A stretch of DNA of 64,000 nucleotides from Escherichia coli (GCF_024223415.1 NZ_CP100500.1); one strand, 5' to 3'; positions 12,326 through 12,880 are shown, numbered from the stretch's first letter. Notes: generated by a model from the letters alone, not told the origin. Numbers and translations: made by a program.

Positions 12326-12439
12326 AAGAAAACATCCCCTGAGAGTTTAATTTTCGTCAAGATGCGTGGCGGACAATCCCCTGCCAGCGAAACGTTATCT
12401 TCCTGCTCCAGGTTTGCGACAATTTGCTGCGTCGCAAAA

Positions 12440-12455
12440 AAGCAAACGTTTAGCT
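12440..12455. promoter_or_regulatory. Candidate PurR-like operator (AAGCAAACGTTTAGCT) upstream of ghxP
   Basis: Matches the core GCAAACGTTT of the PurR box consensus ACGCAAACGTTTGCGT, with mismatches in the right half. Confidence 0.35.
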
Positions 12456-12581
12456 CCGCGCATACAAAACGGGTGGTAAAAAAAGCAAACGATTATCCGG
12501 CGATCATAGCGGCTTTTTCAACCGAAGTTTGCTGCTTTTTTCTCTTTTATTGTCTTGACGATGAAAAACCAGGCAATTGAT

Positions 12582-12597
12582 GCGCAAACGTTATCGT
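12582..12597. promoter_or_regulatory. Second candidate PurR-like box (GCGCAAACGTTATCGT)
   Basis: Left half CGCAAAC is perfect, right half has two mismatches; about 260 bp upstream of ghxP. Confidence 0.3.
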
Positions 12598-12734
12598 CGA
12601 TGCGCAAGATTGCAGCGTTAGCGAGCCGTATACCGTTCTGGATTGCGATAAAAAATCGTCTGAGATGACAAAAATATTGCGGCTAAAAAGTATACTTTTA
12701 CACTGGCGAAGAAACGCCGGTGACATACAATTAA

Positions 12735-12880
12735 AGCATCAACACCAACCGGAACCTCCACCACGTGCTCGAATGAGGTGTGTTGACGTCGGGGGAAACC
12801 CTCCTGTGTACCAGCGGGATAGAGAGAAAGACAAAGACCGGAAAACAAACTAAAGCGCCCTTGTGGCGCTTTAGTTTTGT
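12735..12880 (+). ncRNA. ryjA: Candidate small RNA (RyjA/SraL-like) ending in a terminator that overlaps the soxR 3' end
   Basis: Plus-strand hairpin AAAGCGCC-CTTGT-GGCGCTTT followed by AGTTTTGTT at 12852..12880, antisense to the soxR stop; K-12 has RyjA in the soxR-yjcD interval. The 5' end is not determinable from sequence. Confidence 0.35.

Follow-up and report, generated by a model that had tools for sequence, protein, structure and literature searches.

The ghxP-soxR spacer of Escherichia coli: the sraL (ryjA) small RNA gene and a conserved three-box PurR region upstream of ghxP

Introduction

Between the stop codon of soxR and the start of the purine permease gene ghxP lies a spacer of 545 bp in the 64,000-nt stretch of Escherichia coli DNA that we analyzed as a whole (the window). 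This spacer raises the question of which regulatory elements it carries, whether these form one unit or several, and whether the frameshift seen in the nearby soxS gene says anything about the state of the locus. The gene order, established from open reading frames (ORFs) and from the annotation of strains K-12 and S51, is yjcE-ghxP-sraL-soxR-soxS-pdeC, and the protein-coding genes that matter here are the following.

10976..12325, minus strand: ghxP (yjcD), guanine/hypoxanthine permease gene, 449 aa, intact, annotated in K-12 and S51
12871..13335, minus strand: soxR, 154 aa, intact, from ORF and annotation, DNA identical to that of S51
13421..13746, plus strand: soxS, frameshifted by a change from A7 to A6 at 13504..13509, leaving ORFs of 44 and 67 aa

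Of 5,426 complete E. coli genomes, 5,419 match a 555-bp query (12326..12880) with at least 80% coverage, and in six the match is 100% identical. Over 12200..13800 the sole difference from strain S51 is one missing A, located in soxS, and comparison with K-12 over the same interval gave 18 substitutions plus the same soxS indel, none of them within sraL or any of the PurR boxes described below.

Results

The sraL gene

The original prediction held that a small RNA (sRNA) of the RyjA/SraL type converges on soxR in this spacer, and the gene is indeed there, together with its promoter and terminator.

12703..12734, plus strand: sraL promoter, -35-like CTGGCG (12703..12708), 17-bp spacer, -10 TACAAT (12726..12731), TAA (12732..12734)
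12738..12878, plus strand: sraL/ryjA sRNA gene, 141 nt, full-length Rfam RF01408, equal to K-12 ryjA (b4459)
12847..12877, both strands: intrinsic terminator hairpin, 13 pairs of which 6 are G-C, core CTAAAGCGCC/GGCGCTTTAG, loop CTTGT

A search of 11800..13900 against Rfam (E up to 1) returned RF01408, the sraL family, at 12738..12878 on the plus strand with 153.3 bits (gathering score 39; E 3.7e-36), the match covering model positions 1-142 of 142. When K-12 coordinates are converted (window = 4290804 - K-12 coordinate), the ncRNA ryjA (b4459; 4277926..4278066) falls exactly on 12878..12738, and the interval 12718..12891 is without any base difference from K-12. The closest differences flank the gene, one at 12717, which is 21 nt upstream of +1, and one at 12892, within soxR. 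The window and K-12 therefore share the position, strand, 141-nt length, sequence, promoter and terminator of ryjA/SraL, as well as the overlap of its 3' end with the last 8 nt of soxR.

As judged from its sequence, the 5' end of sraL bears a feature of sigma-S-type promoters, a -10 hexamer followed by TAA, which matches the description of the sraL promoter in PMC3753932. CTGGCR, and TA(C/G)A(A/C)T with its TAA, are conserved across genera. In E. coli an imperfect inverted repeat, CTGGCG-AAGAAA-CGCCGG (12703..12720), lies over the -35 region and part of the spacer, and in other genera the CTGGCR half alone is conserved. The minimum-free-energy fold of sraL contains the terminator hairpin and is modestly more stable than those of shuffled sequences (z = -1.69).

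SraL/RyjA has been described as an sRNA of about 140 nt encoded beside soxR on the other strand, with induction in stationary phase and a direct dependence on RpoS, the latter having been demonstrated in Salmonella; its stationary-phase, RpoS-dependent expression and its binding to Hfq are reported in the literature for K-12 and Salmonella (PMC3753932). By homology, the gene in the window would give a 141-nt Hfq-binding sRNA from a sigma-S-type promoter. The Salmonella locus, soxR-sraL-STM4267-yjcD, has the same sRNA, convergent with soxR and with a conserved promoter, and it is there that function has been established: SraL acts in trans by base pairing, repressing tig through pairing with its 5' UTR (PMC3753932) and, according to Silva et al. 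2019 as cited in PMC12360218, antiterminating rho by countering premature Rho termination in the rho leader.

To see how widely this arrangement occurs, species-representative genomes were scanned with a 16-nt core of sraL, which yielded 120 stretches, 72 of them carrying sraL. All 72 carriers are Enterobacteriaceae or enterobacterial metagenome-assembled genomes, and in 71 of these 72 loci sraL adjoins soxR in convergent orientation.

A terminator probably shared with soxR

The prediction of a plus-strand intrinsic terminator over the soxR stop codon proved right, with a stem (12847..12877) slightly wider than the 12852..12880 first proposed; the stop codon, at 12871..12873, is inside the stem. 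On the plus strand GGAAAACAAA comes before the stem and TTTTGTT after it; with an A-tract upstream and a T-tract downstream, the structure is symmetric. Its minus strand matches the terminator portion of the sraL model with 23.7 bits, the tail on that strand being TTTGTTTT. To judge from these features, the hairpin is probably bidirectional and terminates both soxR and sraL. If soxR transcripts do end at this hairpin, which is where we would place their 3' end, the convergent soxR and sraL transcripts would have about 35-40 nt in common and would be complementary to each other, RNA to RNA, over that length.

A conserved antisense overlap between sraL and the soxR coding sequence was also considered. 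Among the 71 loci, sraL overlaps the soxR ORF by 8 nt in 9, all of the Escherichia group, and by at least 1 nt in 20; 10 loci have an overlap of 0, and in the other 41 the two are separated by a gap. Conservation thus lends no support to an antisense function on soxR, and the 8-nt overlap, absent from most genera, is incidental.

PurR boxes upstream of ghxP

Two sequences with a PurR core had been pointed out upstream of ghxP. Both are real PurR boxes by the analysis below, which also brought out a third, weaker one and a PurR-like fourth. Positions are given relative to the predicted ghxP start site (see below).

12440..12455, minus strand: PurR box 1, AAGCAAACGTTTAGCT in the window and AGCTAAACGTTTGCTT in the ghxP sense, 18.8 bits, rank 1, at about +32..+47 within the predicted 5' UTR
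12582..12597, minus strand: PurR box 2, GCGCAAACGTTATCGT in the window and ACGATAACGTTTGCGC in the ghxP sense, 18.3 bits, rank 2, at about -111..-96
12483..12498, minus strand: PurR box 3, GGATAATCGTTTGCTT, 11.2 bits, rank 7, over the -10 hexamer and predicted start, at about -12..+4
12386..12401, minus strand: PurR-like box 4, AAGATAACGTTTCGCT, rank 25, with no more than 8.0 bits

Operators of PurR, a repressor of the LacI/GalR family, are imperfect palindromes of 16 bp. The core shared by the first two boxes, GCAAACGTT, is found at 12442..12450 and 12584..12592, and in one more copy in the 64 kb. A search of the 64 kb with the strict palindromic consensus ACGCAAACGTTTGCGT, allowing 3 mismatches, found box 2 only, and since 38 of 100 shuffled sequences contained at least one match, this result is not significant by itself. 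The strict consensus being uninformative, we used instead a log-odds matrix built from published sites, namely the 27 other PurR ChIP-chip motifs in Table 1 of Cho et al. 2011 (PMC3159470), with the ghxP locus left out. Both strands of the 64 kb were scanned, about 128,000 positions in all. Boxes 1 and 2 took ranks 1 and 2, within the range of the training sites (12.1-24.7 bits) and ahead of a third-best site of 13.8 bits; box 3 lies just below the weakest training site. A central CG step is present in every core (AAACGTTT in box 1, TAACGTTT in box 2 and AATCGTTT in box 3), and all three boxes have the same orientation. With the PurR regulon, whose consensus is ACGNAAACGTTTGCNT, boxes 1 and 2 share the fit to the matrix, the central CG and the position upstream of ghxP.

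Published binding data cover the boxes. Cho et al. 2011 reported a ChIP-chip region labelled 'ryjA/yjcD' (4,275,855-4,276,485 in old K-12 coordinates) that is bound by PurR with adenine at a log2 ratio of 2.08, and in it a motif at 4,276,230-4,276,245 (PMC3159470). Box 2 agrees letter for letter with this motif, which maps to 12597..12582 after a coordinate shift of 1,977 bp. The bound region as a whole corresponds to 12342..12972 and encompasses all the boxes, which are identical in K-12; at the resolution of the ChIP-chip data, about 630 bp, the bound box cannot be told from its neighbours. Whereas Cho et al. 2011 give one motif per region, the window has two further conserved boxes in that same region. 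Furthermore, repression of yjcD/ghxP that depends on PurR and adenine has been reported or cited in PMC3809563 and PMC8376909.

A fourth site, at -76 of yjcD, has been proposed computationally (PMC4576408). As an operator, box 4 is probably not functional: it scores no more than 8 bits, and its column identity across species is 0.72, which ranks it 154th of 315 16-mer windows.

Directly upstream of box 2 in the ghxP sense, the block ATCTTGCGC (12598..12610) is at least 90% conserved across genera, and it repeats the ATGCGCAA of box 2 on the plus strand. This block could be an extended PurR contact or the site of another factor.

The predicted ghxP promoter and its cross-species footprint

A promoter scan of the spacer found a single promoter-like site on the minus strand.

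12492..12521, minus strand: predicted ghxP sigma-70 promoter, -35 TTGAAA (12521..12516), 18-bp spacer, -10 GATAAT (12497..12492)

The combination TTGAAA-N18-GATAAT scores 10 of 12 and would place the ghxP start site near 12486. For comparison across species we took the 54 loci that have both sraL and a ghxP start, together with the window (55 sequences), scanned the DNA upstream of ghxP and made an alignment of its last 330 nt. Every one of the 55 loci has boxes 1 and 2, and 52 of the 55 have box 3. Column identity to the window is 0.955 in box 1, 0.95 in box 2 and 0.94 in box 3, against a mean of 0.58 in the other 240 columns. Within the promoter, the hexamers reach 0.976 (TTGAAA) and 0.985 (GATAAT) over the 55 sequences, and they are 18 bp apart in the 52 loci that have box 3, while the sequence between them varies freely. 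Near-invariant hexamers around a freely varying spacer are the classic footprint of a sigma-70 promoter. The boxes thus flank and overlap a conserved predicted ghxP promoter, whose start site is likewise a prediction. In other genera box 3 scores 11.1-14.1 bits, and the 14.1-bit form, AGATAATCGTTTGCCT, is found in many of them; its conservation could be owed partly to the -10 hexamer that it contains.

The distance between boxes 2 and 3 is 99 bp in all 52 loci, whereas that between boxes 3 and 1 varies, being 42-46 bp in 43 loci, 89-91 bp in 6 and 145-206 bp in 3. Box 2, the promoter and box 3 therefore make up a single rigid module, and insertions are tolerated in the 5' UTR. Some genera (loci L033, L079, L097, L041, L080, L090, L095, L107 and L122) have about 45, 100 or 160 bp inserted between boxes 3 and 1, and in these the distance between boxes 2 and 3 is still 99 bp.

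Two other readings of this region were looked into. An alternative ghxP promoter beside box 2 was rejected, the best hexamers found by eye scoring 8 of 12 and lying in poorly conserved columns. As for a structured leader or riboswitch in the ghxP 5' UTR of about 160 nt, the Rfam scan of 11800..13900 (E up to 1) gave sraL only, and the fold of the 5' UTR is not more stable than those of shuffled sequences (z = -0.12), so that this reading was likewise rejected.

Mechanical ORFs of 62-88 aa run across the spacer and sraL (12362..12580 and 12665..12853 on the plus strand; 12618..12884 on the minus strand); they sit where the pattern of conservation suits operators and an sRNA, not codons.

Does box 2 belong to sraL, or are the signals due to chance?

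Most Enterobacteriaceae have a glutathione S-transferase gene (Pfam GST_N and GST_C; L019, 3104..3774) that separates sraL from the control region of ghxP and is encoded on the ghxP strand. With this gene the spacer measures about 1.1-1.3 kb; in Escherichia and several Citrobacter, which lack it, 412-454 bp. The Salmonella gene is STM4267, between sraL and yjcD, and it is absent from the window, where the corresponding stretch is 12598..12737. An Enterobacter cloacae record has the gene broken up into two ORFs, of 167 and 87 aa.

This gene bears on whether box 2 controls sraL instead of, or besides, ghxP, in which case the sRNA would be tied to purine status. The idea is not without grounds, given that box 2 has the divergently oriented sraL and ghxP on either side and is 141-156 bp upstream of where sraL starts, that the region of Cho et al. 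2011 is labelled with both names (PMC3159470), and that some 100 bp from the predicted ghxP promoter is an unusual distance for a repressor site. In most other genera, however, the glutathione S-transferase gene of about 700 bp separates box 2 from sraL in a spacer of about 1.1 kb, and the 99 bp between box 2 and the promoter box of ghxP are nevertheless kept in every one of the 52 loci, which indicates that box 2 travels with ghxP and not with sraL; moreover, the expression of sraL is accounted for by RpoS (PMC3753932). We therefore consider control of sraL by box 2 very unlikely. Another reading takes the hairpin at 12847..12877 as the terminator of soxR only and the PurR-like boxes as chance matches, with no sRNA and no regulation. 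The symmetric hairpin would indeed terminate soxR, and matches to the strict consensus are common enough in shuffled sequences, with at least one per 64 kb in 38 of 100. Against this, the Rfam match spans all 142 model positions and so extends well beyond the terminator, the sequence is identical to that of an sRNA detected experimentally in K-12, and chance is contradicted by the scores with the matrix, by the footprint seen across species and by the ChIP data in the literature. These observations refute this reading.

The soxS frameshift and the quality of the sequence

SoxS is an activator of the AraC/XylS family, 107 aa in length. In the window, the run GCAAAAAAATC of its gene is one A shorter than in K-12 and S51, which breaks the frame after codon 29 and leaves a product of 44 aa, 29 of them native residues, and a separate C-terminal ORF of 67 aa from 13540; an uninterrupted SoxS frame with both helix-turn-helix motifs is not found. 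Of 5,425 complete E. coli genomes, not one has the A6 allele, and the best identity among them over 13380..13760 is 99.7%, the shortfall being this one gap. Upstream of soxS, the following element is unaffected.

13347..13364, both strands: palindrome CCTCAAGTTAACTTGAGG between soxR and soxS, 18 bp and perfect, intact and identical to that of S51, which we take to be the SoxR operator within the soxS promoter

Comparison over the whole window puts the missing base in context. The nearest complete genome, S51, is 99.96% identical over the 64 kb, the differences being 20 substitutions and 4 indels, each of the latter a change of a single base in an A run of 5-7. At 13 of the 20 substitutions the window has an A on the plus strand (binomial p = 2e-4 against 25%), and among the coding changes 12 are nonsynonymous and 6 synonymous. 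The variant positions include 1855, 2254, 2507, 7528, 22412, 22921, 24436 and 25994, further ones being 30292, 32507, 36200, 39845, 40638, 45316, 50277, 62652 and others. No complete E. coli genome has the contracted A run at 22412, and the same holds for at least two of the three substitutions to A in nrfA. Some of the differences belong to S51; for instance, the window has the common Asp at residue 2 of UvrA. Changes that are private, strand-asymmetric, centred on homopolymers and mostly nonsynonymous look like error and not like evolution, and this suggests sequence-quality problems in the window. At 39845, within a SopA-family gene, the window has A7 and S51 has A6, the S51 gene being annotated as a frameshifted pseudogene; the gene may therefore be intact in the window.

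Loss of regulators does occur in laboratory and host-adapted lineages, and slippage in a homopolymer is a natural mode of mutation. Given that the deletion is present in the sequence as it stands, a real loss of function has to be weighed: slippage in the A7 run would leave a cell that senses superoxide through SoxR, yet cannot induce the SoxS regulon. This is a minority reading that we find rather doubtful, in view of the absence of the A6 allele from the 5,425 complete genomes, the two other A-run contractions and one expansion relative to the nearest relative, the strand-asymmetric excess of A substitutions with its preponderance of nonsynonymous changes, and the fact that the other variants examined are likewise private to the window. 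Most likely, the frameshift is a homopolymer error of sequencing or assembly, or else a private mutation, and unrelated to the spacer. The original prediction was correct in noting the frameshift. Its suggestion that the state of the locus as a whole deserves attention is unsupported, because the change is a private one in a homopolymer, and soxR, the SoxR operator, sraL, the PurR boxes and ghxP are as in S51. Before the A run is re-sequenced, no biological meaning should be given to the soxS frameshift, and the signs of homopolymer and A-biased error in the window would bear on every other pseudogene call that rests on it.

Discussion

We are highly confident that the ghxP-soxR spacer consists of two independent regulatory units, the sraL/ryjA gene and the PurR-controlled region of ghxP, and equally so in the joint explanation that adds the soxS frameshift as an error or private mutation of no relation to the spacer. 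It should be noted that the sRNA SraL/RyjA and the control of ghxP by PurR are both already known, being textbook or database items for K-12. The increment provided here, the conserved layout of three boxes with a fixed spacing of 99 bp, is a modest refinement, and beyond the correct annotation of the spacer its significance is small.

How the three boxes might work together deserves some consideration. With plentiful hypoxanthine or guanine, corepressor-bound PurR would occupy the boxes and shut off ghxP. At box 3, PurR would occlude RNA polymerase at the promoter, and the strong flanking boxes would provide extra occupancy or, in the case of box 1, a roadblock. The identity of the sRNA and the quality and conservation of the boxes are shown here, and the binding of PurR to the region and the repression by purines in the literature, whereas the ghxP start site, the occupancy of individual boxes, the part that each would play in repression and the 3' end of soxR are inferred.

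The purR gene is autoregulated through two operators downstream of its promoter. At purB and purR, PurR is said to block elongation from a downstream operator (PMC3159470), and box 1 of ghxP, at about +32..+47, resembles these downstream operators. On the other hand, the downstream box of ghxP is located in the 5' UTR, not in coding sequence, and it is combined with a box at the promoter and another 100 bp upstream.

PurR is a dimer that is not known to loop DNA, and a box about 100 bp upstream is therefore hard to explain. A tentative proposal, which we offer as a possibility and regard as rather unlikely, is that ghxP is under the control of a fixed three-operator PurR module in which the weak promoter box is loaded only with the help of the strong flanking boxes. 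If this were true, it would represent a cooperative or multi-site mode that is undescribed for dimeric PurR, which is usually treated as acting through one operator per promoter. With three conserved, co-oriented PurR boxes, an invariant spacing of 99 bp and a well-footprinted promoter, the ghxP control region offers a clean system in which the use of multiple operators by PurR can be addressed.
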